The notes beneath the pieces were generated by a model, which was not told where the DNA came from, did no database searches, and was given only the letters and a program-made list of their open reading frames with translations. 64,000 bases of DNA from NCBI GenBank assembly GCA_021815405.1, contig JAKAGV010000007.1:181888-245887 (forward strand), read 5' to 3'. The stretch comes from Bacteroidota bacterium. Lineage in GTDB: Bacteria > Bacteroidota > Ignavibacteria > Ignavibacteriales > Ignavibacteriaceae. This document shows positions 13,988 to 39,899 of the stretch, one piece after another. Numbering within the stretch: the stretch's first letter is position 1; each line of letters begins with the position of its first letter. A program made the translations under genes and the position numbers.

Positions 13988-14095
13988 AAATTTATTGTTG
14001 ATTTTGATACTAGATTCTGAATTCTAGGTGTAATTCCAACATCAAGTATTTGCTATACAAGTAAGTTTAATTTGTATTATTATTGAAAGCGGTTC

Positions 14096-16879: not shown

Positions 16880-16883
16880 TTAT

Positions 16884-20299: not shown

Positions 20300-20324
20300 A
20301 TTCATTCTCCCATTGTCATTATGA

Positions 20325-20342
20325 ATCACGATTTATCGTGAT
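20325..20342. promoter_or_regulatory. Perfect 8-2-8 palindrome ATCACGAT-TT-ATCGTGAT upstream of the aconitase-family gene
   Basis: Read directly from the sequence. It lies 26-43 nt upstream of the 20299 start, inside the 137-nt HD-to-aconitase gap. The 2-nt loop is too tight for an RNA hairpin, so a protein operator is more likely. Confidence 0.3.
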
Positions 20343-20436
20343 GTAACAATCTATAATTTTATTTGAATTTTAAAGTTCTCTTTATTCCTTGCTTAATGAA
20401 TTTATCAAATCTTTATTATTTGAATAATCTGTAATT

Positions 20437-20967
20437 CTATTTGAACGATTCGAAACTGACAAAGTCTGCGTGATGAACAATTAAAGATTCTACGGTACGT
20501 TTTCCCAAATCTCCTTCATGTGAATGTGTTGCAATAATATGTTGAACCTCCGGCGGAATGCCGAATCTATCTGCAACAGCTAATCCGCTGAATGGATGAC
20601 GAACTAGTTTACCAGCTTCACTTGTAGTGAGTTTTCCGTTTCTTATTTCGTATTCAAGAAGCTTCCCAATGTCAATTAAGATTGCGCCGGCAATCAGAAC
20701 ATCCATATCGATTTTCATTTCATCTCCAAAATTTTGTTTCATCACTTTTGCCATTTCCGCAGCTAGTTGAACAGTCGTCCGCTTATGGATAATAAATGAA
20801 ATCTTACAATCTTTAACCAGTAAGGAAAAAGGAATCGTTTTCAAGTCATCAATAGTAAGGACGCTATTGTCTAATGCATAAATCCAGCAATTTAAAACTT
20901 TTTCCTTTAAGTCATTATTTTGAATCCAGTTTATTTCCGGCCAGATTTCTAATATTTCTTTTTTCAT
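20437..20967 (-). CDS. HD-domain metal-dependent phosphohydrolase-like protein
   Basis: 176 aa with H...HD-type residues (IIHKRT..., LIDIGK, RHPFSG, ATHSHEGD). Confidence 0.55.
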   Translation of the reverse strand: MKKEILEIWPEINWIQNNDLKEKVLNCWIYALDNSVLTIDDLKTIPFSLLVKDCKISFIIHKRTTVQLAAEMAKVMKQNFGDEMKIDMDVLIAGAILIDIGKLLEYEIRNGKLTTSEAGKLVRHPFSGLAVADRFGIPPEVQHIIATHSHEGDLGKRTVESLIVHHADFVSFESFK

Positions 20968-21064
20968 ATTTAGCTCAAGAGATTAAATTTGCATTATTAC
21001 CAATATGAAGTTTCAGATTGCTAAATTGCTTCATAATTAAAAGAACAATTTAACAATTGATCGG

Positions 21065-22243
21065 CTAAACAATTTTCTTAATAATTTCGTCCGTTATCTG
21101 TTGTGTTGTTGAAGCTCCTTTTGAAAAAACATCCGGACCTCCTTTTAACTTCATCATGTCGTAAGTTTTAACTTTTCCTTCTTCTATTACCTTTGCAACA
21201 GCGTTTCTTATTTTCTCCGCTTTTAAATTTTCTCCCAGATGATCAAGCATCATGCAGGCGCTGAGTATCATTGCAATTGGATTTACAATTGATGGATGAA
21301 GTTCCTGATATTTTGGTGCTGATCCGTGTGTAGGTTCAAATATTGCAACATCTTTGCCGATGTTTGCACTGCATGCAAATCCAAGTCCGCCTACAAGACC
21401 GGCGAAGCCGTCACTTATGATGTCGCCAAACATATTTTCTGCAACAATTACTCCGTAAATTTCAGGATTCTTTGTCAACCACATCATTTGTGCATCGATG
21501 TTGGTATCCCAGAGATCGATGTTGGGATATTCTTTAGATATTATTTTTGCTTCATTCAGCATCATACCAGAGGTTTCACGCAAGACGTTCGGCTTTTCAC
21601 AGACTGTTACATTTTTATAGCCAAATCGTTTTGCATAATCAAAAGCTTCTCTTAGTATTCTTCTGCATGCTGGTCTGGATACTATTCTTGTGGATATTGC
21701 CAGGTCTTCACCGGGTACATCTTTAAATGCTTTCATCTTCGGATGAGTTTCCAACGCATCCCGAACAGTTTTCGGTGGATTTGTCCATTCCACGCCGGAG
21801 TAAAGACCTTCGGTATTCTGTCTGAAGATAACGACATTCACATCAGGTTCTTCGAAACTTTCATCTTTTCTTCTAATAAAATTAAGTGGGTTGCCTTTAA
21901 AGGATTTGCATGGACGAATACAAATATCAAGGTTGAAGTGCTGTCTCAGTCCCACTATCGGGCTGAAATAATTATATCCTTTTCCTTGCAGCGAAGCATC
22001 AAGCTCCTGACCTGCAGCATCTTTCGGCTTACTGGTTATTGCACCAAACAAACCGACTTTATGTTTTTCAAGAAGGTCAATCGTTCTTTGTGGAAGCGCA
22101 TTTCCTTCTTTACACCAAAACTCCCAGCCGATATCAGCATGAACATATTCTGCTTCAAAACCAACTGCGGCTAGGATCTTCAATGCTTCCGGTAGAACAG
22201 TTTTTCCTATTCCATCACCGGGCATAGTAACAATAGTTTTCAT
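21065..22243 (-). CDS. Isocitrate/isopropylmalate dehydrogenase-family oxidative decarboxylase
   Basis: N-terminal MPGDGIGKTV, then NLDICIRPC, FRQNTEGLYSG, GDIISD and EPTHGSAPK motifs. The ATG at 22243 (MKTIV) is preferred over 22258. Confidence 0.8.
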   Translation of the reverse strand: MKTIVTMPGDGIGKTVLPEALKILAAVGFEAEYVHADIGWEFWCKEGNALPQRTIDLLEKHKVGLFGAITSKPKDAAGQELDASLQGKGYNYFSPIVGLRQHFNLDICIRPCKSFKGNPLNFIRRKDESFEEPDVNVVIFRQNTEGLYSGVEWTNPPKTVRDALETHPKMKAFKDVPGEDLAISTRIVSRPACRRILREAFDYAKRFGYKNVTVCEKPNVLRETSGMMLNEAKIISKEYPNIDLWDTNIDAQMMWLTKNPEIYGVIVAENMFGDIISDGFAGLVGGLGFACSANIGKDVAIFEPTHGSAPKYQELHPSIVNPIAMILSACMMLDHLGENLKAEKIRNAVAKVIEEGKVKTYDMMKLKGGPDVFSKGASTTQQITDEIIKKIV

Positions 22244-22306
22244 GAGGTAGATCCCCAATGATTATGAACAAATAATTATTTGACTCAAACTTATGCTAAA
22301 AAGAAA

Positions 22307-22442: not shown

Positions 22443-25400
22443 TTGAAAAAAAATATCAGCAACAATCAAAAATATAACGAGCGGGAGCTAGAAGAATTCG
22501 AAGGTCTTCTAAAAAAACTCATTGCCGAAAACAAGATTCCTGAAAGTTTTAACAGTATTGCTGAAAACCTTTCATCAATTGTTTCTTCATATAAAAAAGA
22601 ATTTGAAACTCATAAACTAATTCTTGAAACTTCGGTTGATGTTATCTTTAAGATTACTCAAGCCGGCGAAATTATATCTATCGGAGAAAAGTGTAAGGAT
22701 ATTTTCGGATACGGTCCGGATGAATTAACAAACAAATTTATTACCAGTTTTATTCCTTCAACAGAATTAAAAAAAGCTTTAAAAATTTTCACAAAGCTTT
22801 TTAAGGAAAAGAAAGTAAAGAATGAGGTCGTTTCTTTAAAACATAAAAACGGGCAGTTAATTCCTATTGAACTGACTGCAATGGTAATTAAGCAGGACGG
22901 GAAATATATTGCCCAGGGAATATTGCATGAGCTAAGCGAGCGTTATAAAGTTGAAGCCAACACAGATATTTCGGATAGTATTTTCAAAAATGTTTGGGAA
23001 AAATCTTCAAACGGAATGTGCCTTGCCGATGAAAACGGTTATGTTTTTATGTGCAACACTGCTTATTCCAAAATCTTCAGTAAAGACAAAATTGAAATTG
23101 AACATCAACTTATTACAAATGTTTTATCCGATAGTACGGCTGATACTGTCTTAAGCGATTACACTAAAAATTTCAATGATCATTCTTTCCCAAGCAGTAT
23201 TGAAAAAAAATATGAGTTGTGGAACGGCACTGCAGTAGATTTTGAAGTAAGCTATTCTTTTATTGAAGGTGTAGGAGATAAAACACTTTTACTTATAATT
23301 TTTAAAGATATTTCTCTCAGAAAAGCAAGCGAAATTCATGCAAAGAAGAGGGACAACTTGCTTCAAGGAATTGCAGCGGCTACACAAAGACTTATTTCTA
23401 CAAATGATCCGGAAATCGGATTCTCTTCTGCCTTAAAAATACTTGGCGAAGCTGTCAAAGTAAACCGGGCTTACATTTATAAACATAAATCCGTAGAAGA
23501 TACCGGCGAAATGTACGTTAGTTTGCTTTATGAATGGACGTCTGAAGATACGGAACATCAAATTGAAAATATTGAACTGCAGAAACTATCTTACTCCCGA
23601 TTCGAATCTTTGAGATTCTACGATGCATTCTCCAACGGCAAGCCTCTTAGTTTTGTAATGAAAAATTTGTCCGAAGAAGAACGCCTTCTATTCATCGATA
23701 AAAATATTAAATCGATTATACTTGCACCGATCATGGTTGACGGACTTTATTGGGGCTTTCTTGGATTCGACGATTGTGAAACTGACAGGGAATGGACACC
23801 GAATGAAGGATCACTTTTGGTAACTATGGCTTCAATGCTTGGTGCTGTAATCAAGAGGAATAATATTCAGGACGAGCTAATAAAAAAGAATGCCGAACTT
23901 GACGCAGCAATAGTTAAAGCAGAAGCTGGAACTAAGGCTAAAAGCGAATTCCTTGCTTTGATGAGCCACGAAATTAGAACTCCAATGAACGGAGTAATCG
24001 GAATGACGGGGCTCCTTTTAGATACTGATTTAAGTGATGAGCAAAGAGAATATGTTGAAACAATCCGTCTCAGCGGTGATCATCTTTTAGTAATAATAAA
24101 TGATATATTGGACTTCTCTAAGATCGAATCAGAAAAATTAGAACTTGAAATGCAGCCTTTCGATCTGAAAGATTGTGTCGAAGACTGCCTTGATTTATTG
24201 GCTTCAAAAGCGGGCGACAAAGGTCTTGATCTTGCTTACTTGATTGAAAATAATACTCCTCAAACTATTTTTGGCGATGTTACAAGGCTTAAACAAATTA
24301 TTACCAATCTTCTTAACAATGCAATCAAGTTTACCGAAAAAGGCGAAGTCTTTCTTTCTGTTTCTTCCAAAGAGATTAACAATAATAAATTCGAAATTCA
24401 ATTCTTTGTTAAAGATACCGGCATAGGAATTCCAGAGGATAGGATTGACAGATTATTCAAGGCGTTCAATCAGGTAGATGTTTCTACAACAAGAACACAT
24501 GGCGGTACGGGACTTGGATTAGTAATTAGCAAACGACTTTCCGAGATGATGAGCGGAAAAATGTGGTTCGAAAGCAAGTACGGTGCAGGTTCTACTTTTT
24601 ATTTTACAATTATTGCTGAGCAAGCTCCTTCCAAATCAAAAATATATTTGAAAGGTAAAGCAATCGAGCTTGAAGGCAAGAAAGCTTTAATAGTGGATGA
24701 TAATGCTACGAACAGAAGAATCTTAAAAATGCAGACAGGCAACTGGGGTATGCAGCCCTATGTTGTTGAATCTCCGCTTGATGCAATTAGACTGATGAAT
24801 AACGGAGAAGACTTTGACATAGCTATTTTAGATTATCATATGCCGGTTATGAACGGCGTGGAGCTTACAAAAGAAATCCGTAACACTCCAAAGGGAAAAA
24901 ATCTTCCTGTTGTAATTTTAACATCGATAGGTAAAAGAGAAGCCGACGGAGATTTTAACAATTTGAATTTAGCCGCATTTATTACTAAGCCTGTTAAACA
25001 AGTTCAGCTTTATGATTGTCTTACTTCAATCTTATCCGGTAAAGAAAAAGTACAGTCCAATATTCCTAAGAATGAAGTAAAACTAGATACGGAATTGGGG
25101 CATCGAATGCCACTCAGAATTCTTTTAGCAGAAGACAATGTTGTAAATCAAAAGGTTGCTACTAGAATTTTGGAAAGGCTGGGATTCAGAGCAGATGTTG
25201 CTGCAAACGGGTTTGAGGTAATTGAGGCAATCAAAAGAATAAATTATGATATTATCTTTATGGATATTTTTATGCCCGAAATGGACGGCTATGAAGCTAC
25301 AAAATATATCCTGGATAATTATAAAAATGATGAGAGACCAAAAATAATTGCAATGACGGCGAATGCTATGCAGGGTGATAAAGAAAAATGCCTTGAAGCC

Positions 25401-25904
25401 GGAATGGATGATTACATCGGTAAACCTGTGCGTGTTGAAGAGCTTCAGGCATCACTGCAGAAGTGGGGATTAATTATTTACGACGATAAAAATTCCAGGC
25501 TTGCTGTAGATGAAAGTAAGCAAACGTCTTTCAAATATGTTGATGAAGGTAAAATTGATTTAATCCAGGATATAAAATCCTCCGAAGATTTAAATTTCTT
25601 TATAGAGCTGCTCGATATTTATATTAAAGATTTGCCATTAAGCATTGCAAGAATTAAAAATGCTGTGGTTCAAAGAGATAAGAATCAGATCAGATTTTAT
25701 GCACACAAACTGAAAGGAAGCAGTCTTACCTTTGGAATACGCGCAATATCAGATAAATGTATCAAGATAGAAGAAGCAGTTAAACAAGATATTGATAATC
25801 CTCGTACGGCTGATTTAGTTGAAGAGCTTATAGTAAAATTTGAAGTAGTTATAAAAGAACTGGAACAACTGAAAGAAAAATATAGTCACATGTCCTTCTC
25901 ATAA
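22443..25904 (+). CDS. Hybrid sensor histidine kinase (PAS-PAS-GAF-HisKA-HATPase-REC-REC-HPt)
   Basis: 1153 aa. H-box [12 protein letters not shown] and G-box GGTGLGL. Two receiver domains ([11 protein letters not shown] and [11 protein letters not shown]) and a C-terminal HPt (AHKLKGSS). Confidence 0.85.
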
Positions 25905-28383: not shown

Positions 28384-29250
28384 ATGGAAAAAGTTTTTTT
28401 TTACAAGATGAGCGGAGCGGGTAACGATTTTATCTTAATCGATAAAAATTCGAATCCCAGTTTTACTCTGGAATCGAAATCAATAAAAAAAATGTGCGAC
28501 AGGCGCAACGGAATTGGTGCGGATGGAGTTATTACTATTACAAATTCAAAAACTTATGATTTTGAAATGCAATATTTTAACGCTGACGGCTCTACAGGCA
28601 GCCTTTGCGGCAATGGTGCAAGATGTGCAATAAGATTTGCCGAAATAAGCGGAAGAATTAAGAATAGGAATACAAATTTTCTTTCTAACGGGCTTACGTA
28701 TTCCGGCGAGGTGTTGAACGGCAGTGAAATAAAGTTCTTTTTTAATTCTCCAAAAGGATTAAAGTACAACTTTAAAATTTTAGCTGCTAAGCAATTAATA
28801 AATGCATGCTTTGCAGATACCGGTTCGCCGCACGTAGTGATTAAGGTGGAAGATATTTTAAAAGATTCTGAGAATCCTTTATCTAAATATGAAACCCTCG
28901 ATGAAGTTCCAGTATTTGAACTTGGCAGGGAAATCAGATATCATAAAGATTTTGCACCAGGTGGTACTAACGTGAATTTTATTAAACTTGTGGATAATAA
29001 AATTCACATTCGAACTTATGAACGAGGTGTTGAAGATGAAACTTTTGCTTGCGGCACCGGCGCAACTGCCTCAGCAATAATTGGCTATTACATTTTCGGA
29101 TTAAAGCCTCCTATAAAGTTAATTACACGCGGCGGCGATGAATTAATTGTTGATTTTGAAATTGAAAATCAAAATGTAAAGGATCTATCTCTAACAGGTC
29201 CGGCTAAAGTGACCTTTACCGGTGAATTATTATTAAACCAGTATTTCTAA
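28384..29250 (+). CDS. dapF: Diaminopimelate epimerase
   Basis: 288 aa with GAGNDFILID and both catalytic Cys motifs (CGNGARC and ACGTGATAS). Confidence 0.9.
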   Translation: MEKVFFYKMSGAGNDFILIDKNSNPSFTLESKSIKKMCDRRNGIGADGVITITNSKTYDFEMQYFNADGSTGSLCGNGARCAIRFAEISGRIKNRNTNFLSNGLTYSGEVLNGSEIKFFFNSPKGLKYNFKILAAKQLINACFADTGSPHVVIKVEDILKDSENPLSKYETLDEVPVFELGREIRYHKDFAPGGTNVNFIKLVDNKIHIRTYERGVEDETFACGTGATASAIIGYYIFGLKPPIKLITRGGDELIVDFEIENQNVKDLSLTGPAKVTFTGELLLNQYF

Positions 29251-29703: not shown

Positions 29704-30582
29704 ATGACGAAAACTGTACATAGATTTTATATCGCTTCCTTTTTCCTAATAACAATTACAGCAACTCTAGTCCTTTCTATTGAAGGATTCAATTATTATA
29801 AAACTCCTCTTGTTGATAGATTCTTTTCACCTCTCGATACATTACTTAAGCCAAGCGGATTAATCGGGCACGGTCTCGGCATTATAGGCAGTCTGATGAT
29901 GATTTTTGGGGTTGCAATCTATATGATACGAAAGCGAGTTAGATATTTCCATAAGTTCGGTTATCTTAAACATTGGCTGGAATTTCACATTTTCCTTTGC
30001 ACACTGGGTCCAATCTTAATTTTATTTCACACCGCATTTAAGTTTGGCGGAATTGTAGCAGTAAGTTTTTGGAGCATGGTAGCAGTAGTAATTAGTGGTG
30101 CAATAGGAAAATTTATCTATACTCAAGTACCGCATACAATTCAAGGGCAAATGATTAGCTTGCACGAATTAAATTCGCTAAGTGAAAATCTTTCGCAAGA
30201 GCTCAAAAATGATTATGGACTGTCTGACAAAATTATATCTAAAATAGAGCAAATTTCTTCCTTAGACCGCTACAAAAGATTAAAATTTGGAGCGAGTATG
30301 GCACTTGTAATACAGGATTATTTTGGTACAAAAAATGTATTGAACATGCTGAAAAAAGAATTACGCGTTGCCAATGTTCATAAAATTCAAAGGAAGAAAA
30401 TTTTAAAGACTGCTAAAGAAAAACTAGTTATTTCTAGGCGTATAGGATTATTAAATACAACGCAGAAGATACTAAAATACTGGCATGTAATTCATCTTCC
30501 TTTTGCGATCATAATGTTTATCATAATGTTCGTTCACATTGCGGTAGAAATTATATTCGGCTATACGTGGATCTTTAAGTGA
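29704..30582 (+). CDS. Polytopic membrane protein with two H-x13-H pairs (putative di-heme b-type transmembrane cytochrome)
   Basis: 292 aa with about 5 TM helices. H95-x13-H109 (EFH IFLCTLGPILILF H) and H264-x13-H278 (VIH LPFAIIMFIIMFV H) sit in two separate helices. A ~110-aa basic loop lies between TM4 and TM5. Confidence 0.5.
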   Translation: MTKTVHRFYIASFFLITITATLVLSIEGFNYYKTPLVDRFFSPLDTLLKPSGLIGHGLGIIGSLMMIFGVAIYMIRKRVRYFHKFGYLKHWLEFHIFLCTLGPILILFHTAFKFGGIVAVSFWSMVAVVISGAIGKFIYTQVPHTIQGQMISLHELNSLSENLSQELKNDYGLSDKIISKIEQISSLDRYKRLKFGASMALVIQDYFGTKNVLNMLKKELRVANVHKIQRKKILKTAKEKLVISRRIGLLNTTQKILKYWHVIHLPFAIIMFIIMFVHIAVEIIFGYTWIFK

Positions 30583-30670: not shown

Positions 30671-32008
30671 ATGGAAATATTATTGGAAAATCTCGCTACC
30701 TATCTGGTAGTCTTTATTGCCGCAACTGCTGTTTTGATATTATATATTAAAAAGCTTAGAAGAAATACTCGGGAAACCAAATCAAAGATTGAAGAGTCAA
30801 TCCAATTTGGTCTTCATGAACCGGTTTCTTTGCATCCTGTAATAAATCATGATTTATGCTTTGGCTGCGGATCTTGCATTGAAGCTTGCCCCGAACAGGA
30901 TGTGCTTGGTCTTATGGAAGCACAAGCTCATATAATACACGCTTCCAGGTGCGTTGGACATGGTGCATGCTTTAGGGCATGTCCGGTTGATGCAATAACA
31001 TTATGTATAGGTACAGATCAGCGCGGTGTAGATCTTCCGCATGTTACACCTGAATATGAATCAAACATTCCCGGTTTATTTATTGCCGGCGAACTTGGAG
31101 GAATGGGATTAATTAAGAATGCAGTTGAGCAGGGGAAAATGGCTATAAATTTTCTTTCTAATAAAATTCCTTCGTCATCAAAAGCACAATATGACGTCAT
31201 CATTGTCGGAGCTGGTCCTGCCGGCATAGCTGCATCTCTTGCTGCTGAAAAAAAGAAAATGAAATATCTAACCCTGGAACAGGATAGTCTTGGTGGAACA
31301 GTTTTCAATTTTCCACGTGCAAAAATTATTATGACTGCACCAATGGATTTACCTTTACATGGAAAAGTTAAGCTTAGAGAAACTTCAAAGAGTGCGCTTA
31401 TTGAGTTATGGCGTGAGGTTTTAAGTAAGAATCGGATAGTCATTCATGAAAGTGAAAAAGTTGAATCAATAGAAAGAAAGGGGGATTATTTTTTTGAAGT
31501 CAAAACGAATAAAAGACAATATACTTCGCAAGGAATAATACTTGCAATCGGAAGAAGAGGAACACCGCGTAAACTAGGTGTCCCAGGTGAACAAAAAGAA
31601 AAAGTGGCTTATCGTTTAATTGAACCTGAATTAATATCTAATCAATCTATATTAATTGTCGGCGGAGGAGATTCTGCTGTAGAATCCGCAATGTTACTTA
31701 TGAACAATAATAAAGTTACTATTTCTTACCGGAGTGAAAATTTCTCTCGCTTGAAGCCGAAGAATCTTGAATTAATTCAGAATTCGGAAAAAAGCGGTAA
31801 GGTCAAGATTTATTTCAATTCAAACGTTAAAGAAATTTTAGATGATAAAGTTATTCTTGTCGTTTCCGGTTTAGAAAATAATGTAACTATAAAGAATGAC
31901 TTAGTATATATTTTCGCAGGCGGCTTACTGCCGACTGACTTTCTTCAGAAGATAGGCATACAAGTAATGAAGAAACACGGCGAAGCTGTTATAAAACCTG
32001 GACAATAA
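30671..32008 (+). CDS. Membrane-anchored 2x[4Fe-4S] ferredoxin-domain / FAD-NAD(P)-binding oxidoreductase (thioredoxin-reductase-like fold)
   Basis: N-terminal TM helix followed by KKLRRNTRETK. Cluster motifs CFGCGSCIEACP and CVGHGACFRACP. Rossmann motifs DVIIVGAGPAGIAAS and ILIVGGGDSAVE. Confidence 0.7.
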   Translation: MEILLENLATYLVVFIAATAVLILYIKKLRRNTRETKSKIEESIQFGLHEPVSLHPVINHDLCFGCGSCIEACPEQDVLGLMEAQAHIIHASRCVGHGACFRACPVDAITLCIGTDQRGVDLPHVTPEYESNIPGLFIAGELGGMGLIKNAVEQGKMAINFLSNKIPSSSKAQYDVIIVGAGPAGIAASLAAEKKKMKYLTLEQDSLGGTVFNFPRAKIIMTAPMDLPLHGKVKLRETSKSALIELWREVLSKNRIVIHESEKVESIERKGDYFFEVKTNKRQYTSQGIILAIGRRGTPRKLGVPGEQKEKVAYRLIEPELISNQSILIVGGGDSAVESAMLLMNNNKVTISYRSENFSRLKPKNLELIQNSEKSGKVKIYFNSNVKEILDDKVILVVSGLENNVTIKNDLVYIFAGGLLPTDFLQKIGIQVMKKHGEAVIKPGQ

Positions 32009-32111: not shown

Positions 32112-33725
32112 ATGAAGAAATTGACGAGCCTGTTTAGTCTTTCAATCATTATTATGATTATGGTGTCGATGAGAACAAATGCGCAAATATCACCTGGTAA
32201 TCTTACTTTGGCGCATGCAAAGTTAGAAGGCTTAAGCAATTGTACAAAATGTCATGTTCTCGGAAAGCAGGTAGAAAATTTTAAGTGCCTCGATTGCCAT
32301 ACCGAGATTAAACAGCTTATAGATGAGGGTAAGGGATACCACGCAAGCAGCGATGTTAAAAATCAAAAGTGTTATAAGTGCCATAGTGAGCATCATGGAA
32401 GAAATTTTAGAATAATCAATTTCGATCCTAATAAATTTGACCATAACAAAACCGGATTTAGATTGGACGGCAAGCATACGCAGATAAAATGCGAAGACTG
32501 CCATCAAACCAAATTTATTATTAACACTACTCTATTTGATAAAAGAAGTGGAACTTATTTAGGTTTAAGTACAAAATGCGTTTCATGTCATGAAGATGTT
32601 CATCAAAATACTCTTGGAACCAACTGCTCTTCCTGCCACAACACAGTAAAATTTAATCCTGCTGTTTTCTTCAACCATAATAATGCAAAGTTTAAACTGA
32701 CAGGCGCACACACCAAGGTTGAATGTATTAAGTGCCATGTTAAAGAAACTTTTAACGGTAAGACATTTCAGAAATTTGTAGGATTGGATTTTAAGAATTG
32801 CATGCCGTGTCATGCAGATGTTCATAAAGGGCAGTTAGGAAATAACTGCGTTAAATGCCATAATGATGAATCCTTCCTAGTAGTCAACCGTAACTCATTT
32901 GATCATGATAAGACGAGATATCCATTAAGAGGTGCCCACGTAGAAGTTTCTTGTAAAAGCTGCCACGGTAATATTCCTCTTTCTAAACCGAAGTTTGCAA
33001 AATGTACCGACTGCCATAAGGACGAACACTTCGGTGAATTTACTGTAAATCATGTTGTTGAAGACTGCAAGAACTGCCACACGGTAGAAAGTTTTAAGTC
33101 AACAATATTTACTATTCAAGAACATAATAAAGGTAATTTTGAATTAACCGACGCTCATTTAGCAGTGCCGTGTCAGTCATGTCATTATAAATCAAATGAA
33201 AAGCAATGGCACTTTAAAAATACAGGGACTAGATGCATCGACTGCCATAATAATGTTCATGGTTCGGAATTAACGGCAAAGTTTTTACCGGATAACAAAT
33301 GTCAGTCTTGTCATGTAACCGATGATTGGAATAAAATTAATTTCAATCACGATCTGACGAGCTTCAAGTTAGAAGGTAAGCATGCAGAAATATCATGCGC
33401 CGACTGCCACGAACAGAAAAGTGCCGGTGGAAAAATAATTTTCAAATTTGCGTCAACGAAATCTGATTGCGTAACATGTCATAATGATGTTCACTTCGGA
33501 CAGTTCAATTCCGAAAAAACAGACGATATCCCGGTCTGCGAAAAATGTCACGGCTTTGATAATTGGAAGCCGGTGAAGTTTGATCATGAAAAGACAGCAT
33601 TCGCGTTAAAGGGTGCTCACGAAAAAGTGAAATGTTCAGATTGTCATAAGAAAGTTACTGTAGATGGAAATGAATTTATACAATATAAGCTGAAAGATTT
33701 TAAATGCGCTGCGTGTCATTCATAA
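32112..33725 (+). CDS. Multiheme c-type cytochrome, 20 CXXCH motifs
   Basis: ATG at 32112 (MKKLTSLFSLSIIIMIMVSMRTNAQ signal/anchor). I counted 20 CXXCH motifs. The pattern F.H..(T/K).F.L.G.H....C..CH recurs throughout. Confidence 0.85.
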   Translation: MKKLTSLFSLSIIIMIMVSMRTNAQISPGNLTLAHAKLEGLSNCTKCHVLGKQVENFKCLDCHTEIKQLIDEGKGYHASSDVKNQKCYKCHSEHHGRNFRIINFDPNKFDHNKTGFRLDGKHTQIKCEDCHQTKFIINTTLFDKRSGTYLGLSTKCVSCHEDVHQNTLGTNCSSCHNTVKFNPAVFFNHNNAKFKLTGAHTKVECIKCHVKETFNGKTFQKFVGLDFKNCMPCHADVHKGQLGNNCVKCHNDESFLVVNRNSFDHDKTRYPLRGAHVEVSCKSCHGNIPLSKPKFAKCTDCHKDEHFGEFTVNHVVEDCKNCHTVESFKSTIFTIQEHNKGNFELTDAHLAVPCQSCHYKSNEKQWHFKNTGTRCIDCHNNVHGSELTAKFLPDNKCQSCHVTDDWNKINFNHDLTSFKLEGKHAEISCADCHEQKSAGGKIIFKFASTKSDCVTCHNDVHFGQFNSEKTDDIPVCEKCHGFDNWKPVKFDHEKTAFALKGAHEKVKCSDCHKKVTVDGNEFIQYKLKDFKCAACHS

Positions 33726-36664
33726 TTGTTTTATTACTGGGGGTAGTGAATGTCTTTGCACAATCACCTCATGGCAAAGATTTGAAGATGGATTGTTCGG
33801 ACTGTCATATGTCTACAAACTGGAATATTGTTCCGGCTAAGATAAAATTTAATCATAATACTATGACTTCATTTAAATTGACTGGACAGCATACAACGGT
33901 AAGCTGTCAGTCGTGTCATAAAAGTCTAATTTTTTCTGAGGCAAAATCGAATTGTATATCTTGCCACAAAGATATTCATAAAAATTCTTTAGGACCTAAT
34001 TGCGTTGAATGCCACAATACTCAGTCTTGGATTGCAGTTAATATTTTAAAATTGCATCAGGACAGCAGGTTTTCGCTGGTTGGTGTTCATCAAAATGTTG
34101 ATTGTCAAAGTTGCCACTCAGGTTTTGCTGATTTATATTTTCCGACTCAAAGTACATCGTGTTATAGCTGCCATAAAACGCAATTCGCCGCAGCCACCGC
34201 ACCAAATCATGTTCAAGCAAATTTTTCCACCGACTGCCGGCAATGCCACAGTGTAACAGATTTTTCATGGGGGACAAGCAATTTTAATCATAATTTCTTC
34301 CCGCTTGTAGGCGGGCATAATATTCAGAACTGTTTTGCCTGCCATGCAGCGGGAAGTAATTTCCAGGGATTGACAACTGCTTGCTATCCATGTCATAAAC
34401 AGGATTATGCAAATGCAAAAAATCCCGATCATGTTGCGGCTAAGTTTCCAATTGAATGTCAGGATTGCCATACTTCTACAGCTACAAGTTTTGCTCAGGC
34501 ATCAACTTTTAATCATAGTACTACCGGTTTTCCATTGACCGGTGCACACACTACTGTTTTATGCCAGTCTTGCCATAATGGAAATTATACAAGCACGCCA
34601 TCGGATTGCAACTCATGCCATAATAAAGATTATGCAGGTACAACAAATCCGAATCATGCTGCTATTGGATTGGCGACTACGTGTCAAGATTGTCATAATA
34701 CAACAACCTTTACTACAACCACTTTTAATCATTCTACAACTTCATTTGGGCTAACAGGTGCACACACAACTATTTCATGTCAATCATGCCATAAGGGAAA
34801 TGTTGCCTCAACACCGACAGATTGTTATAGCTGCCATGCAACCCAATATAATAACACAACAGATCCGAACCATGCACAGCAAGGTTTCTCGCATGATTGT
34901 TCTCAGTGTCATAGTACAACTAGTTTTGGTGATGCAAATTTCAATCATAGCAATACCGGTTTCCCATTGACTGGAGCACACACTACCGTCTCCTGCCAGT
35001 CTTGTCATAATGGAAATTATACAAGCACGCCGTCTGATTGCAACTCGTGCCATAATAAAGATTATACGGCAACTACTAATCCAAATCATTCTGCGATTGG
35101 TCTGCCGACGACATGTCAGGATTGTCATACAACAACAGACTTTACAACATCGACATTTAATCACTCGACAACACCATTCCCATTAACTGGTGCGCATACA
35201 TCTGTAACCTGTCAGTCATGTCATACAGGTAATGTAGCTTCAACACCGACAGATTGTTATAGCTGCCATGCAACCCAATATAACAACACAACAGATCCGA
35301 ACCATGCACAGCAGGGATTCTCACATGATTGTTCTCAGTGCCATAGTACAACAAGTTTCGGCGATTCAAATTTCAATCATAGTACTACCGGTTTTCCTTT
35401 GACTGGTGCACATACAACAGTTTCATGTCAGTCATGCCATAATGGAAATTATACAAGCACGCCGTCTGATTGCAACTCGTGCCATAATAAAGATTATACG
35501 GCAACTACTAATCCAAATCATTCTGCGATTGGTCTGCCGACGACATGTCAGGATTGTCATACAACAACAGACTTTACAACATCGACATTTAATCACTCGA
35601 CAACACCATTCCCATTAACTGGTGCGCATACATCTGTAACCTGTCAGTCATGTCATACAGGTAATGTAGCTTCAACACCGACAGATTGTTATAGCTGCCA
35701 TGCAACCCAATATAACAACACAACAGATCCGAACCATGCACAGCAGGGATTCTCACATGATTGTTCTCAGTGCCATAGTACAACAAGTTTCGGCGATGCA
35801 AATTTCAATCATAGCAATACCGGTTTCCCATTGACTGGAGCACATACTACCGTCTCCTGCCAGTCTTGTCATAATGGAAATTATACAAGCACGCCTTCTG
35901 ATTGCAACTCATGCCATAATAAAGATTATGTTGCAACTACAAATCCTAATCATGCTGCAATAGGATTGGCAACAACCTGTCAGGATTGCCACACAACAAC
36001 AGACTTTACAACATCGACATTTAATCACTCGACAACACCATTCCCATTAACTGGTGCGCATACGTCTGTAACCTGTCAGTCATGTCATACAGGTAATGTA
36101 GCTTCAACACCTACTGATTGCTATAGCTGTCATGCAACCCAATATAACAACACAACAGATCCAAACCATGTACAGCAAGGATTCTCGCATGACTGCTCTC
36201 AGTGTCATTCAACGACAAGTTTCGGCGATGCATCATTCAATCATAATAATACCGGATTTCCATTGACAGGTGCGCATACAACTGTCTCCTGCCAGTCATG
36301 CCATAATGGGAATTATACAAGCATACCTACTACTTGTTATTCATGCCATCAAACAGATTATAATAATACAACAAATCCTGCTCATCAAACTGCAGGGTTT
36401 CCCACGGACTGCACCCCTTGCCATACGACAACCGGTTGGACACCGTCGACTTTTAATCATACAACATATTTCCCATTGACGGGCAACCATGATATTTCTA
36501 CTTGCAATACATGCCATATAAATGCTTCAAACTTCGGAACATTTTCTTGCACTAATACATGTCACAGTCAGGCAAGTACAGATCCGCATCATACCGGGGT
36601 AAATGGATATGTTTACAGCCCAACATCATGCTACAGTTGCCATCCAACAGGGCAGGGAGATTAG
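33704..36664 (+). CDS. Giant multiheme c-type cytochrome, 39 CXXCH plus one CX3CH, built of c7-like triheme modules
   Basis: 986 aa with signal peptide MRCVSFIIVLLLGVVNVFA/QS. I counted 39 CXXCH motifs and one CTNTCH. The start overlaps the end of the upstream cytochrome gene by 22 nt. Very Thr/Ser/Asn-rich. Confidence 0.85.
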   Translation: MRCVSFIIVLLLGVVNVFAQSPHGKDLKMDCSDCHMSTNWNIVPAKIKFNHNTMTSFKLTGQHTTVSCQSCHKSLIFSEAKSNCISCHKDIHKNSLGPNCVECHNTQSWIAVNILKLHQDSRFSLVGVHQNVDCQSCHSGFADLYFPTQSTSCYSCHKTQFAAATAPNHVQANFSTDCRQCHSVTDFSWGTSNFNHNFFPLVGGHNIQNCFACHAAGSNFQGLTTACYPCHKQDYANAKNPDHVAAKFPIECQDCHTSTATSFAQASTFNHSTTGFPLTGAHTTVLCQSCHNGNYTSTPSDCNSCHNKDYAGTTNPNHAAIGLATTCQDCHNTTTFTTTTFNHSTTSFGLTGAHTTISCQSCHKGNVASTPTDCYSCHATQYNNTTDPNHAQQGFSHDCSQCHSTTSFGDANFNHSNTGFPLTGAHTTVSCQSCHNGNYTSTPSDCNSCHNKDYTATTNPNHSAIGLPTTCQDCHTTTDFTTSTFNHSTTPFPLTGAHTSVTCQSCHTGNVASTPTDCYSCHATQYNNTTDPNHAQQGFSHDCSQCHSTTSFGDSNFNHSTTGFPLTGAHTTVSCQSCHNGNYTSTPSDCNSCHNKDYTATTNPNHSAIGLPTTCQDCHTTTDFTTSTFNHSTTPFPLTGAHTSVTCQSCHTGNVASTPTDCYSCHATQYNNTTDPNHAQQGFSHDCSQCHSTTSFGDANFNHSNTGFPLTGAHTTVSCQSCHNGNYTSTPSDCNSCHNKDYVATTNPNHAAIGLATTCQDCHTTTDFTTSTFNHSTTPFPLTGAHTSVTCQSCHTGNVASTPTDCYSCHATQYNNTTDPNHVQQGFSHDCSQCHSTTSFGDASFNHNNTGFPLTGAHTTVSCQSCHNGNYTSIPTTCYSCHQTDYNNTTNPAHQTAGFPTDCTPCHTTTGWTPSTFNHTTYFPLTGNHDISTCNTCHINASNFGTFSCTNTCHSQASTDPHHTGVNGYVYSPTSCYSCHPTGQGD
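34508..36235 (+). repeat. Four in-frame tandem copies of a 432-bp (144-aa, 6-heme) unit with a 216-bp sub-period
   Basis: Units start at 34508, 34940, 35372 and 35804. Segment 35006-35365 is identical base-for-base to 35438-35797 (360 bp). A degenerate fifth unit follows to about 36470. Confidence 0.9.
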
Positions 36665-36669
36665 TATTT

Positions 36670-38346
36670 ATGAATTATGATAGGTATGAGATGAAATTGT
36701 ATCGGAGAATATTAAATAACCAATTGAAAAAGTTGTTTGAAATATTTTTGCTAATTATATTATTTTTTGGTGCTGCCTTAGCTCAAGAATCAAATACCGT
36801 TAGAAAAAGCGGAACTGTATCATTCGTTACTCCGCAAAATATTTATGTTAAGTTCGAGAATACAGAAGGAATATCCGCCGGCGATACTCTTTATTTTCAA
36901 ATAAGAAATAAAGTACTGCCTGCAATGATTGTAAAATTTATTTCTTCTATTTCAGTTGCCGGACAGAAGATAACCGATATCAATATTAAAGTTGGGGACC
37001 GGCTTTTTACAACGATAAAGAATAGCAAATCCGAAGTAGCCCAAATATCAAAAGCCGGAACTGAAAAGGACACTAATCTTGTTAATGACCATAGTAAGAT
37101 TGTAAAAGCCGATAAGTTCAATATCCCCGAATACAGATCAAATTTTTATGGAAGCATAAGTGCAAATTCGTTTTCTAATTACGCCAACTATGTTAACAGT
37201 GTAGGCATCCAGCGCTGGAATTACACTTTAAATCTTAATGCAAGAAATATAGGCGGCGGTCCGTTTTATTTTACAAATTATATGAACTTAAATTACATGA
37301 GCTCAGAATGGACGGATGTAAAAGCAAACGTATTTAATAATTTAAGAGTGTATGATTTTTCACTCGGTTATAAAGTGCATGGATTTAATGCCTGGATAGG
37401 CAGACACACAAATTATAATATTTCAAGTCTTGGTCCGGTTGACGGGATTGAATTGGAAAAATCTTTCTTGAATAACTTTGCTGTAGGTGGAGTAATTGGC
37501 TCAAGGCCGGATTTTTATAACATGGGAATTAACGGAAAGCTGTTTGAGTACGGCGGTTATTTAACAAGAAAGGATTCTGCAAACAATGGAGTTATGCAAA
37601 ATACAGTTGCCTTATTCCAGCAAACCAATTCAGGTATGACTGACAGAAGATATTTATACTTCCAGCATACAAATACTATTATTCCGAATGTATATCTATT
37701 TGCTTCCACGGAAGTTGATTTATATAAGGAACAAAACAACGTTCCGCAGAATACATTTTCTCTTACAAGCCTTTTTGTCAATACTCAGTATTCGCCTGTA
37801 AACTTTCTTTCAATTAACCTTTCATACGACGCCAGAAAGAATGTTGTTTATTATCAAACATTTAAAAGCTTCCTAGATAGTCTGTTTACAAATGAAATGA
37901 GACAAGGCGTTCAAGGCGGATTTTTTATAAGACCCGGCGGCGGGTTGTTCTTTAATATTTCAGGCGGTTACAGCTATCAGAAAGGCGACGTTAAGCCAGC
38001 GCGTAATTTAAATTTTGCTGTTACTGAAGCCGAGCTTCCTTTTATTGATATTTCTGCTACGGTAAATTATAATAAGATTTTTGGAAGCTACCAGAGCGGA
38101 ACAATGTATGGGCTGCTGCTTACCAAATTTATTAACTTTAATGTTACTACTCTTTCTTTAGGATTTTCAAATATTAATTACAATTTTGGCAATGCATTAG
38201 CCGATTTTATACAGAAGTCAGTTACCGCCGAAATTGATACAAGAATATTCGGTCCGCTCTTCTTCAATTTTTATTATGAAGGAGATTTTGACGGTGTAAC
38301 CACATATAACCGTTTTATGACGGGCTTCAATTACAGATTTAGATAA
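36670..38346 (+). CDS. Putative outer-membrane beta-barrel protein with an N-terminal soluble domain
   Basis: The ATG at 36670 (or 36691) gives the signal-like LFEIFLLIILFFGAALA/QE. The body is aromatic/Gly/Asn-rich with alternating hydrophobicity. It ends with the OMP-type C-terminus ...GFNYRF. Starts 5 nt after the cytochrome stop. Confidence 0.55.
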   Translation: MNYDRYEMKLYRRILNNQLKKLFEIFLLIILFFGAALAQESNTVRKSGTVSFVTPQNIYVKFENTEGISAGDTLYFQIRNKVLPAMIVKFISSISVAGQKITDINIKVGDRLFTTIKNSKSEVAQISKAGTEKDTNLVNDHSKIVKADKFNIPEYRSNFYGSISANSFSNYANYVNSVGIQRWNYTLNLNARNIGGGPFYFTNYMNLNYMSSEWTDVKANVFNNLRVYDFSLGYKVHGFNAWIGRHTNYNISSLGPVDGIELEKSFLNNFAVGGVIGSRPDFYNMGINGKLFEYGGYLTRKDSANNGVMQNTVALFQQTNSGMTDRRYLYFQHTNTIIPNVYLFASTEVDLYKEQNNVPQNTFSLTSLFVNTQYSPVNFLSINLSYDARKNVVYYQTFKSFLDSLFTNEMRQGVQGGFFIRPGGGLFFNISGGYSYQKGDVKPARNLNFAVTEAELPFIDISATVNYNKIFGSYQSGTMYGLLLTKFINFNVTTLSLGFSNINYNFGNALADFIQKSVTAEIDTRIFGPLFFNFYYEGDFDGVTTYNRFMTGFNYRFR

Positions 38347-38379: not shown

Positions 38380-39000
38380 ATGTTTGGAAAAATAAAACCC
38401 TTATATATTTATTTGGTCGCAATATTTTTAGGTATAGTAGGACTTTTCATCTTTAATAAAATTCATAATAAAACCTCTGCGGAGATGAATGCACCGCCTA
38501 TTGATGTAAACGGTCAAGCCGTTCCTAATGATGCAATTCATAAAGGATTGGTAAATCCAGTTGCACAAAAGCCGAACAAGAACAACGTAATGCCGAGCAT
38601 TATGCAGCATATGGAAACATTAAAGAAGGCGGTTATTGATCATCCGAGAGATACTTTAAAGTTAAGAGAATATGCCGACTTTCTTGCTGAAGCTCAAATG
38701 AATGATAAAGCTTTGAATTATTATCAGAAGATTCTTCGCATAAATCCCAGAAGAACCGACGTCATGACTTCAATGGTTTACATTTATTTTGCTGAAAAAA
38801 ATTTTAAAGAAGCCGAGAGATACTTGAATAAAATTTTATTTGTAAATAGAAACGACGTTAATGCTTTGTACAACCTTGGCGCAGTTTCGGCTAATGAGGG
38901 AAACAGAGTGAAAGCTAAACAGTTGTGGACAAAAATTGTTAAGGAGTTTCCAAACTCACCTCTTGCAAAAGAAGCAAGGGCTTCATTAAGCCAACTATAG
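38380..39000 (+). CDS. Membrane-anchored TPR-repeat protein (paralog 1)
   Basis: 206 aa with an N-terminal TM helix and TPR-like repeats (A..YY.KIL..NP....). Clear paralog of 39294..39899. Confidence 0.6.
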   Translation: MFGKIKPLYIYLVAIFLGIVGLFIFNKIHNKTSAEMNAPPIDVNGQAVPNDAIHKGLVNPVAQKPNKNNVMPSIMQHMETLKKAVIDHPRDTLKLREYADFLAEAQMNDKALNYYQKILRINPRRTDVMTSMVYIYFAEKNFKEAERYLNKILFVNRNDVNALYNLGAVSANEGNRVKAKQLWTKIVKEFPNSPLAKEARASLSQL

Positions 39001-39293: not shown

Positions 39294-39899
39294 ATGAAAA
39301 ACATTAAACCTATTTACATATACGGAATCGGTGTAATATTAAGTGCACTGGTATTTATTTTCCTTTCACAAAAAGATGAGACAAGCTATCCTGGTAAGAC
39401 AGGAAACATGACTAACGAGCAAATGCCGAATGATAATATCCATAAAGGATTAACAAATCCGTTGCAGCTTCCAAATAAAAATAATGTTGCTGAAGCTATT
39501 ATGCAGCGGATGCAAATGCTTAAGCAGGCTGCTGAATCTAATCCGAAAGACACTGCAAAACTTAAAGCCTATGCGGATTTTCTTTCAGCGGCGCATCAGC
39601 CTGACGAAGCATTGGTTTACTACAACAAAATATTAAGTATGTATCCAAGGCGGATCGATGTTCTTTTCTCGGTTGCTTATCTAAATTATACAAAAAGAAA
39701 TTTTACCGAAGCGGAAAAGATTCTGAAAAAAGTTATTTCTTATGATAGGAATAATCTTCAGGCATATTATAATTTAGGTGCAATTGCTGCAAGCGAAGGT
39801 AACAAGGAAAAAGCAAAAGAAATCTGGACAAAATTGATTAAAGATCATCCAACTGCACAGATTGCTGCTACAGCTAGAAAATCTTTAGGTGAGATTTAA
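39294..39899 (+). CDS. Membrane-anchored TPR-repeat protein (paralog 2)
   Basis: 201 aa. Shares PND.IHKGL.NP, NKNNV, YADFL, YYN.GA..A.EGN..KAK..WTK with paralog 1. Confidence 0.6.
   Translation: MKNIKPIYIYGIGVILSALVFIFLSQKDETSYPGKTGNMTNEQMPNDNIHKGLTNPLQLPNKNNVAEAIMQRMQMLKQAAESNPKDTAKLKAYADFLSAAHQPDEALVYYNKILSMYPRRIDVLFSVAYLNYTKRNFTEAEKILKKVISYDRNNLQAYYNLGAIAASEGNKEKAKEIWTKLIKDHPTAQIAATARKSLGEI

Follow-up and report, generated by a model that had tools for sequence, protein, structure and literature searches.

The stretch of DNA analysed here (the window) comprises 64,000 nucleotides from a Bacteroidota bacterium of the family Ignavibacteriaceae (NCBI GenBank assembly GCA_021815405.1, contig JAKAGV010000007.1, positions 181,888 to 245,887 of the forward strand), and all coordinates below are positions in the window unless another sequence is named. 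The longest open reading frame (ORF) of the region, 33704-36664, is probably the gene for a c-type cytochrome that is exported by the Sec pathway and is predicted from its translation to carry 40 covalently bound hemes, all with bis-His ligation. The context that explains this 40-heme protein is a conserved gene cluster resembling PCC3, in which it is encoded together with an inner-membrane protein (IMP), an iron-sulphur (FeS) flavoprotein, a second cytochrome with 20 heme motifs and a putative outer-membrane beta-barrel. The features of the 40-heme gene are the following:

33704..36664, plus strand: gene of the 986-aa 40-heme cytochrome, with an ATG start, 39 CXXCH motifs and one CX3CH motif, arranged as 13 c7-type triheme modules and one C-terminal heme site.
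33704..33760, plus strand: Sec-type signal peptide, residues 1-19 (...NVFA/QSPHG), as read from the translation.
33770..34420, plus strand: N-terminal region, residues 23-239, three divergent triheme modules with CXXCH at residues 31/68/84, 100/134/153 and 178/210/227.
34421..36580, plus strand: ten 72-aa triheme modules, residues 240-959, of two alternating subtypes, with the invariant pattern H...CxxCH...H...H..CxxCH...CxxCH.
34503..36323, plus strand: tandem repeat in the DNA with a 432-bp period (144 aa), 4.2 copies and 89% identity; each unit holds the two alternating module subtypes, and it is here that assemblies differ in copy number.
36548..36565, plus strand: CTNTCH (CX3CH) heme-binding site, residues 949-954, at the third heme position of module 13.
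36581..36661, plus strand: C-terminal cap with the 40th heme site (…H.GV.GY.Y....CYxCHP.G), conserved family-wide in the C-terminal alignment.

The 986 codons translate without interruption. The initial annotation of this DNA had counted 39 CXXCH motifs and one CTNTCH motif, and the recount gave the same numbers, with the CTNTCH motif at residue 949. Taken in threes, the 40 motifs form 13 triheme modules, where about 13 had been proposed, and leave one extra C-terminal site at C976. The strict 72-aa period was also recovered: between residues 252 and 903 the CXXCH motifs are spaced by 32 (35 once), 15 and 25 residues, and printing the sequence in a 72-aa register places residues 240-959 in ten regular modules. 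The nine further heme motifs in residues 23-239 are spaced more loosely.

The protein contains 81 Cys, 85 His and 4 Met residues, and 45 of the His lie outside the heme motifs, for 40 hemes. The three additional His of each module that had been pointed out in the segments NPNH, FNH and GAH are invariant in the homologous segments, 34 of four modules and 73 of two modules, that were aligned; in the same alignments all six Cys and six His of the module are invariant. One of the distal His is located upstream of the first heme motif and the other two between the first and the second. Three invariant extra His per module and the absence of Met from the repeat consensus imply that the ligation should be bis-His throughout. 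The CTNTCH motif, whose conservation had been named as a point to be checked, is matched by CX3CH in the closest relatives, by CXXCH in most homologues and by CX4CH in some. Variation from CX2CH to CX4CH at this position indicates that the motif is a genuine heme site with a variable loop.

The signal peptide reads MRCVSFIIVLLLGVVNVFA/QSPHG, and the mature N-terminus, (S/N)PHG, is kept among the homologues. No lipobox follows the signal peptide, as the initial annotation had stated. The Pfam model Mtrc-MtrF_II-IV_dom matches residues 131-294 with 69 bits, above its threshold. The composition is dominated by Thr (17%), Ser (11%) and Asn (9%). From the many N-x-S/T sites in the linkers, glycosylation had been considered conceivable; the protein contains 30 such sites, compared to 24.1 +/- 4.0 in shuffled sequences of the same composition, which is no enrichment, and it lacks D[ST][AILVMT], the motif for O-glycosylation in Bacteroidetes. 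The glycosylation idea was dropped on these grounds.

The earlier claim that the protein is a polymer of c7-type domains holds at the level of sequence profiles. In the hidden Markov model search that had been suggested as a check, Pfam PF14522 (Cytochrome_C7) matches 12 stretches with 189.7 bits (6.7e-57; cut-off 24.8) and the NCBIfam model TIGR04257, 'nanowire_3heme', matches with 79.1 bits (2e-22; cut-off 40). When the whole 40-heme protein was compared to PDB sequences with phmmer, nothing was found. A two-module profile built from 73 sequences matched best the 16-heme cytochrome HmcA (1z1n, 2e-8), followed by GSU1996 (3ov0, E = 4e-7) and the hexaheme fragments of the latter (3oue, 4.6e-4; 3ouq, 3.1e-3). 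The alignment to 3ov0 is collinear and consists of three stretches of two modules each, with the heme motifs in register; the segment containing FNH and GAH falls opposite the loop just before heme motif two in every domain of GSU1996. A single-module profile of 10 sequences gave marginal c7/GSU1996 matches only (e.g. 1rwj, 0.046). An AlphaFold2 model of two modules, computed from the 73-sequence alignment, has a pLDDT of 86.7 and a pTM of 0.70; the four-module model, from 34 sequences, is poor (pLDDT 57.8), and Foldseek found no PDB match for it. Homology of the modules to c7-type domains is supported by the profile comparisons.

Like GSU1996 and the other Geobacter c7 polymers (TIGR04257; 3ov0, 3oue, 3ouq, 1rwj), the protein is a tandem array in which each domain spans some 70-80 aa and has three CXXCH; the role proposed for both is that of a heme wire or electron store. 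The differences are several. GSU1996 has four modules and the 40-heme protein 13 and a cap. Each GSU1996 domain contains one His-Met heme (heme IV), for which there is no counterpart here, the 4 Met among 986 residues lying outside the repeat consensus. In the 40-heme protein, unlike in GSU1996, one distal His is placed between the first and second motifs and not upstream, the composition is rich in Thr, Ser and Asn and low in charge, and the gene belongs to a cluster of the porin type that also encodes an IMP and a flavoprotein. HmcA of Desulfovibrio (1z1n) is likewise a concatenation of c3/c7-like units, but it is compact and periplasmic, mixes tri- and tetraheme units without a regular 72-aa repeat and belongs to a quinone-linked membrane complex.

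The length of the array has to be considered together with the DNA repeat that encodes it. Between repeat units 2 and 3 the identity is 96.8%, with one exact stretch of 360 bp, which exceeds a typical short read. In a second assembly of the locus (L001, assembled from short reads, k141), 22 kb agree with the window at 100% identity, the sole exception being that exactly one 432-bp unit is missing. A single protein cluster holds versions of 698, 842 and 986 aa (P0361, P0005, P0362), which differ by whole 144-aa steps and come from assemblies with identical flanks; the 986-aa member is identical to the window protein, for which an exact look-up had returned no record. These observations would be expected if the length of 986 aa were a product of assembly, the true array having another number of 144-aa units or having been mis-joined. 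Other observations speak for the array as assembled. Units 2 and 3 differ at about 14 positions, which a simple loop artefact would not invent; the reading frame and all heme and His positions are intact in every copy; and arrays of equal or greater length are present in relatives sequenced with long reads and in the finished plasmid of Emticicia described below. For such cytochromes the number of heme domains is also reported to vary between close relatives (PMC7399161), and the copy-number differences may be either short-read collapse or real polymorphism. The extra unit of the window carries substitutions of its own, which makes it more likely that the longer form is real and the shorter ones are collapsed. 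An artefactual length is considered rather unlikely, and the doubt concerns the copy number of the repeat alone and not the gene.

Within its family, which is very large and uncharacterised, the 40-heme protein is of medium size. A word-indexed search returned more than 5,400 relatives at E <= 1e-10, unnamed or labelled 'cytochrome c3 family', many of which have 1,300-1,720 residues and 55-70 CXXCH. At E <= 1e-3, an exhaustive comparison of the module profile to 1.84 billion cluster representatives placed the module in at least 6,630 clusters, and at E <= 1e-30 in 1,907; the longest protein has 2,321 residues and 94 CXXCH (P0365). The description of the protein as a much longer c7 polymer is therefore correct relative to GSU1996 but not within the family, where its size is ordinary. 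A protein of 2,020 aa with 80 CXXCH is encoded in an Ignavibacteriaceae metagenome-assembled genome (MAG) (L059, 5023-11082), and in some homologues the C-terminal cap also occurs inside the protein, with further modules after it, as if two proteins had been fused.

The hosts were surveyed among GTDB species representatives, which contributed 80 loci, every one from a MAG; with L001, 81 loci were scanned. The 80 loci belong to Ignavibacteria, Bacteroidota, Acidobacteriota, Zixibacteria, Calditrichia and a few others, and the closest species representatives are MAGs labelled Ignavibacteriaceae and 'Bacteroidetes'. A cultured host is also available: the finished plasmid pEMTOL02 of Emticicia oligotrophica DSM 17448, the sole match when plasmids were searched with the 40-heme protein, encodes a homologue of 1,001 residues with exactly 40 CXXCH (WP_015031199.1). 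A paper on Rifle bioanode communities (PMC7399161) describes Ignavibacteria genomes as abundant in a bioanode biofilm and gives 40 and 33 heme motifs for the largest cytochromes encoded in them, without further analysis.

The other genes of the cluster, and two genes that follow it, are separated by short gaps on the same strand:

29704..30582, plus strand: 292-aa IMP, a putative diheme cytochrome b, with W91-x3-H95-x13-H109, S131-G-x-x-G135 and W260-x3-H264-x13-H278.
30671..32008, plus strand: 445-aa membrane-anchored FeS flavoprotein, with an N-terminal transmembrane helix, two Cys clusters of the 4Fe-4S type and a thioredoxin-reductase-like FAD/NAD(P)H domain.
32112..33725, plus strand: 537-aa cytochrome with 20 CXXCH, likely starting at ATG 32112 (MKKLTS...), followed by a signal peptide; the mechanically called ORF begins at TTG 32010.
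33704..33725, plus strand: 22-nt overlap of the 20-heme and 40-heme genes, the ATG of the latter lying inside the codons of the last CAACH.
36691..38346, plus strand: 551-aa secreted protein, a putative outer-membrane beta-barrel ('porin'), likely starting at ATG 36691; the mechanically called ORF begins at 36559.
38380..39000, plus strand: 206-aa tetratricopeptide repeat (TPR) protein with an N-terminal transmembrane helix and weak CcmH/CycH TPR similarity, co-occurring in 22 loci.
39294..39899, plus strand: 201-aa paralogous TPR protein, also with an N-terminal transmembrane helix and weak CcmH/CycH TPR similarity, co-occurring in 20 loci.

The IMP has five hydrophobic segments, as judged by eye on the sequence, and no match in Pfam or NCBIfam. 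Its motif residues are 93-100% conserved in 59 homologues from related loci. The flavoprotein matches Pfam Fer4 families and Pyr_redox_3 (4e-45), and TIGR04018 and TRX_reduct below their cut-offs. It contains GAGPAG at residue 180 and GGGDSA at residue 331, and its eight Cys are at positions 63/66/69/73/94/100/104/112. Since all eight belong to the cluster motifs and a redox-active CxxC disulphide is absent, the protein appears to combine a ferredoxin-NAD(P) reductase-like domain with a ferredoxin domain and not to be a disulphide reductase. Positively charged residues after the N-terminal helix suggest that its catalytic part faces the cytoplasm. The 20-heme cytochrome contains 43 His and is rich in Lys, Glu and Asp; it matches Pfam Cytochrome_C7 (4e-23) and, below the cut-off of 192, the DmsE-family model TIGR03508 (59.6 bits, 3.3e-16).

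The 551-aa protein has a signal peptide, a soluble N-terminal domain of about 110 aa, no transmembrane helix and a composition rich in Asn, Phe, Gly, Ser and Tyr. It has no match in Pfam, NCBIfam or the PDB, and a search of 5.8 billion proteins gave unnamed homologues only. A profile of 114 homologues displays about 22 amphipathic segments of period 2 (0.184 compared to 0.118 +/- 0.026 in shuffles), and the beta-moment test on the single sequence is weak (z = 2.0). The two TPR proteins may be chaperones of the apocytochromes.

When presence was scored as a homologue with a coverage of at least 0.5 in the 80 GTDB loci and L001, the IMP was found in 62 of the 81 loci, the flavoprotein in 67 and the 551-aa protein in 44, and a cytochrome of about 20 hemes adjoins the giant cytochrome in most of them. 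The order of the genes differs between the Ignavibacteria/Bacteroidota, the Acidobacteriota and the Zixibacteria, which indicates that the set of genes is maintained by selection and is not inherited synteny. The overlap of the two cytochrome genes had been reported as 22 nt, with the start codon inside the last CXXCH-coding codons of the upstream gene, and this is the arrangement found (CAACH in the 20-heme ORF). An overlap of the same 22 nt occurs in 25 related loci and in Emticicia, and this conservation supports the translational coupling that had been suggested; overlaps of 25 nt (3 loci) and 4 nt (5 loci) occur as well. On the Emticicia plasmid the whole cluster is present (L082, NC_018749.1 81299-89995; locus 12001-20697), in the order fused ccsA maturation gene, IMP, 'NAD(P)-binding' flavoprotein, 23-heme cytochrome, 40-heme cytochrome and a 538-aa putative barrel, with the two cytochrome genes overlapping by 22 nt.

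In three loci of the Acidobacteriota or Thermoanaerobaculia type (P0072; L050, 6314-10300; L016, 4826-10522) the flavoprotein and a giant c7 polymer form one continuous reading frame. The fused proteins consist, in this order, of a transmembrane helix, FeS clusters, FAD/NAD(P) domain, a hydrophobic segment ending in ..VRA/QESPHG, and c7 modules. The hydrophobic segment looks like the former signal peptide of the cytochrome, and the layout is topologically consistent with a cytoplasmic flavoprotein and a periplasmic cytochrome.

PCC3 was defined in Fe(II)-oxidising and other Proteobacteria by He et al. in 2017 (PMC5566968). According to that work it consists of a porin, two multiheme cytochromes, termed 'extracellular' and 'periplasmic' and with heme medians of 34 and 21, respectively, and an IMP of about 300 residues and five helices, which has SGXXG in helix 4 and WX3HX13H in helices 3 and 5 and is read as a diheme cytochrome b. 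The cytochromes are repetitive, with about 25-30 aa per heme, and the larger one is rich in Thr, Ser, Ala and Gly; its 'extracellular' location is itself a software prediction (PMC5566968). The window cluster shows corresponding features. Its IMP is of about 300 aa and contains SGXXG and both WX3HX13H motifs; its cytochromes, also repetitive, have 20 heme motifs (25.6 aa per heme) in the counterpart of the 'periplasmic' one and 40 (24.2 aa per heme) in the other, compared to the medians of 21 and 34, a gene for a putative barrel adjoins them, and the larger cytochrome is rich in Thr and Ser. The contrast in composition between the 'extracellular' and the 'periplasmic' cytochrome is also shared: Lys and Arg make up 2.2% and Ser, Thr and Asn 38% of the 40-heme protein, compared to 13.5% and 20% of the 20-heme protein.

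There are also differences. PCC3 was described in Proteobacteria, whereas the present cluster occurs in Ignavibacteria, Bacteroidota, Acidobacteriota, Zixibacteria and Calditrichia. The FeS flavoprotein, conserved here, is missing from the component lists of PMC5566968 and PMC10734462, and a search of the text of PMC5566968 for the terms 'FAD' and 'pyridine nucleotide' found no mention of either. The large cytochrome is built of 72-aa triheme modules here, whereas the documented proteobacterial 'extracellular' ones have repeats of 16-47 aa (PMC5566968). Judged by its gene content and motifs, the cluster agrees with the published description of PCC3 and appears to be a PCC3-like variant with an additional, apparently undescribed, flavoprotein component.

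The cluster follows the same logic as MtrCAB and OmaB-OmbB-OmcB, in which periplasmic and outer multiheme cytochromes and an outer-membrane barrel are encoded together, and it displays similarity to the DmsE/MtrA and OmcA/MtrC families below threshold and to domain II/IV of MtrC/MtrF above threshold. It is not an MtrCAB system by the family models, TIGR03508 scoring 59.6 bits with a cut-off of 192 and TIGR03507 scoring 38.2 with a cut-off of 209. The candidate outer cytochrome lacks a lipobox, the barrel has no match to MtrB/PioB or another family, and the hemes number 60 compared to 20 in MtrCAB and OmaB-OmbB-OmcB. The inner-membrane entry of MtrCAB-type systems is a quinol dehydrogenase of the CymA/CbcL type, in place of which the IMP and the flavoprotein are found here.

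Based on these findings, we regard it as likely that the 40-heme protein is the long-wire subunit of a PCC3-like conduit that carries electrons across the envelope of the Ignavibacteriaceae bacterium. If stacked as in GSU1996, the modules would form one continuous chain of hemes a few tens of nm long. In the first step, the membrane-tethered FeS flavoprotein would draw electrons on the cytoplasmic side from NAD(P)H or from a donor at the level of ferredoxin. The flavoprotein would then pass them to the five-helix IMP, in which two b hemes would be bound by the two HX13H pairs, and the IMP to the 20-heme periplasmic cytochrome. The 22-nt overlap would set a fixed ratio between the 20-heme and 40-heme cytochromes, the former handing electrons to the latter. 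Finally, the 40-heme cytochrome, together with the barrel encoded immediately downstream, would bring the electrons across the outer membrane or past it; Fe(III) or Mn(IV) minerals, humic material and electrodes are examples of the insoluble or extracellular acceptors that they might reach there. An outer position of the 40-heme protein is favoured by its low content of Lys and Arg and high content of Ser, Thr and Asn, by the location of its gene next to the barrel gene and by the 69-bit match to MtrC/MtrF.

Several observations weigh against this assignment as a whole. We know of no member of this cluster type that has been studied biochemically, and all the functional steps are accordingly inferred, as are the occupancy of the heme sites, the geometry of the wire, the electron donor, the direction of flow and which of the cytochromes is in or outside the barrel; the sequences themselves show the numbers of heme sites and ligands, the modular architecture, the profile-level homology to c7-type domains, the conservation of the cluster, the IMP motifs and the overlap. 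When the two-module model was compared to the PDB with Foldseek, no match at E <= 10 was obtained; as such domains are very poor in regular secondary structure, this is not taken as a negative result for a c7-like fold. No porin family and no known structure matches the barrel, and its assignment is drawn from the signal peptide, the composition and a modest period-2 signal (z ~2-2.5). The likeness to the reference proteobacterial PCC3 proteins is one of published feature descriptions, and in the two documented proteobacterial examples a repeat of the triheme type, of 66 aa, occurs in the 'periplasmic' and not in the 'extracellular' cytochrome (PMC5566968).

Further points against the outer position would fit a different arrangement, in which the 40-heme protein does not leave the periplasm, where it would act as a wire across this compartment, a 'capacitor' or both, and it is the 20-heme MtrA-like protein that sits in the barrel. 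Inspection of the sequences revealed no lipobox or recognisable secretion tag on either cytochrome, and in the 40-heme protein no C-terminal sorting domain or known secretion signal, so that export of the holoprotein with its 40 hemes across the outer membrane is unexplained. In some lineages the fused flavoprotein-cytochromes (P0072, L050, L016) place the start of the giant cytochrome at the inner membrane, which favours a role in spanning the periplasm. The stronger similarity to the DmsE/MtrA family belongs to the 20-heme and not to the 40-heme protein (3.3e-16). Thirteen modules scaled from GSU1996 would come to about the width of the periplasm. GSU1996, the closest relative with a solved structure, is called a periplasmic nanowire in PMC10138318. 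The composition argues the other way, since a protein of low charge, rich in Thr, Ser and Asn, contrasts with a 20-heme partner whose composition is typical of soluble proteins. An AxA-like site (..VRA/QESPHG) terminates the hydrophobic segment of the fused proteins, so that cleavage there is a simple possibility, and in all lineages that have the barrel the 40-heme gene is directly upstream of it. A periplasmic 40-heme protein is a possible arrangement, but a less likely one than the long-wire assignment.

The direction of electron flow in the proposed conduit is a separate matter. PCC3 was first found and defined in neutrophilic Fe(II) oxidisers, in which the published model has electrons flowing inward (PMC5566968; PMC10734462), and multiheme conduits of the Mtr type are considered to be reversible (PMC10734462); the first of these points counts against an outward conduit. 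An inward conduit would take up electrons from Fe(II), reduced minerals or cathodes, with the 40-heme protein acting as the collecting antenna. The partner conserved in the cluster is, however, a cytoplasmic FeS flavoprotein of the NAD(P) type, and the reduction of NAD(P)+ or ferredoxin with electrons from Fe(II) is strongly uphill, whereas no coupling device is encoded in the cluster. Hemes of the bis-His c7 type are, moreover, generally of low potential. Ignavibacteria with such cytochromes were enriched on an anode, that is, on an electron acceptor (PMC7399161). Because of the flavoprotein and of the enrichment on an anode, inward flow is regarded as improbable for the window cluster.

The entry point of the proposed conduit can be considered further with the help of the fused proteins and of a distant relative of the IMP. 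The only proteobacterial IMP-like match, distant and in a different context, is encoded on a plasmid of Methylophaga pinxianii (L083, NZ_CP095734.1 25047-28401; 23% identity, E = 3e-4). Its gene is flanked there by those of a 2Fe-2S protein (612 aa) and a cytochrome c (254 aa), next to a full ccm operon. Such an arrangement may represent this relay across the membrane in its simplest form. Together with the features of the flavoprotein, the fusions and the Methylophaga context suggest that the IMP connects an FeS or flavin partner in the cytoplasm with c hemes in the periplasm by relaying electrons.

In NOX and in Fre-MsrQ, ferric-reductase-domain proteins relay electrons from a cytoplasmic partner. 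A comparison of the PCC3 IMP to the ferric-reductase domain was made by He et al. (PMC5566968). The window cluster has in common with NOX and Fre-MsrQ two HX13H pairs on two helices, which could stack two b hemes, and a cytoplasmic flavin/NAD(P)H partner. It differs from them in that the IMP has no Pfam ferric-reductase match and five helices instead of six, in the two FeS clusters of the partner, and in the acceptor, which would be a chain of 60 c-type hemes. As a tentative extension of the proposed pathway, one that may well prove wrong, the five genes might form a quinone-independent, NOX-like module for electron export, in which a flavoprotein oxidising NAD(P)H or ferredoxin passes electrons to the diheme b IMP, to about 60 c hemes and to the exterior.

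The remaining genes in the vicinity do not take part in this argument. The gene of diaminopimelate epimerase (28384-29250) is located just upstream of the cluster and holds this position in 21 related loci of the Ignavibacteria/Bacteroidota lineage; the adjacency is probably lineage synteny and not a functional link. A hybrid sensor kinase (PAS, GAF, HisKA, HATPase, two receivers and Hpt; 22443-25904) is encoded 4 kb upstream on the same strand, and also upstream in L001. On the minus strand, 14096-22258 contains genes of central metabolism, namely those for citrate lyase alpha and beta/ACP-like proteins, PrpD/MmgE, aconitase and isocitrate/isopropylmalate dehydrogenase. An origin of the cluster from a mobile element or another foreign source was considered and rejected: the GC content is unremarkable except in the repeat, and the flanks consist of ordinary chromosomal genes.

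Many metagenome surveys count giant multiheme cytochromes encoded beside porin-like genes and read them as a mark of extracellular electron transfer, and systems of the PCC3 type have been predicted from genomes, none being known to have been characterised. One long c7 polymer as such is mainly a placement within a large, known and unstudied family. What is gained is an architecture of 13 modules and a cap with predicted bis-His ligation throughout, a five-gene unit that recurs in at least five phyla, and a cultured host with a finished genome, Emticicia oligotrophica DSM 17448, which is tractable and in which the system could be tested. If the NOX-like export suggested above were true, the venting of reducing power past the quinone pool would be widespread from Ignavibacteriota to Calditrichota, spanning Ignavibacteriota, Bacteroidota, Acidobacteriota, Zixibacteria and Calditrichota and including the aerobic, cultured Emticicia. 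The conserved flavoprotein, occasionally encoded as one protein with the cytochrome, suggests that NAD(P)H instead of quinol may be the source of the electrons, which, if true, would change models of the energetics of such conduits.

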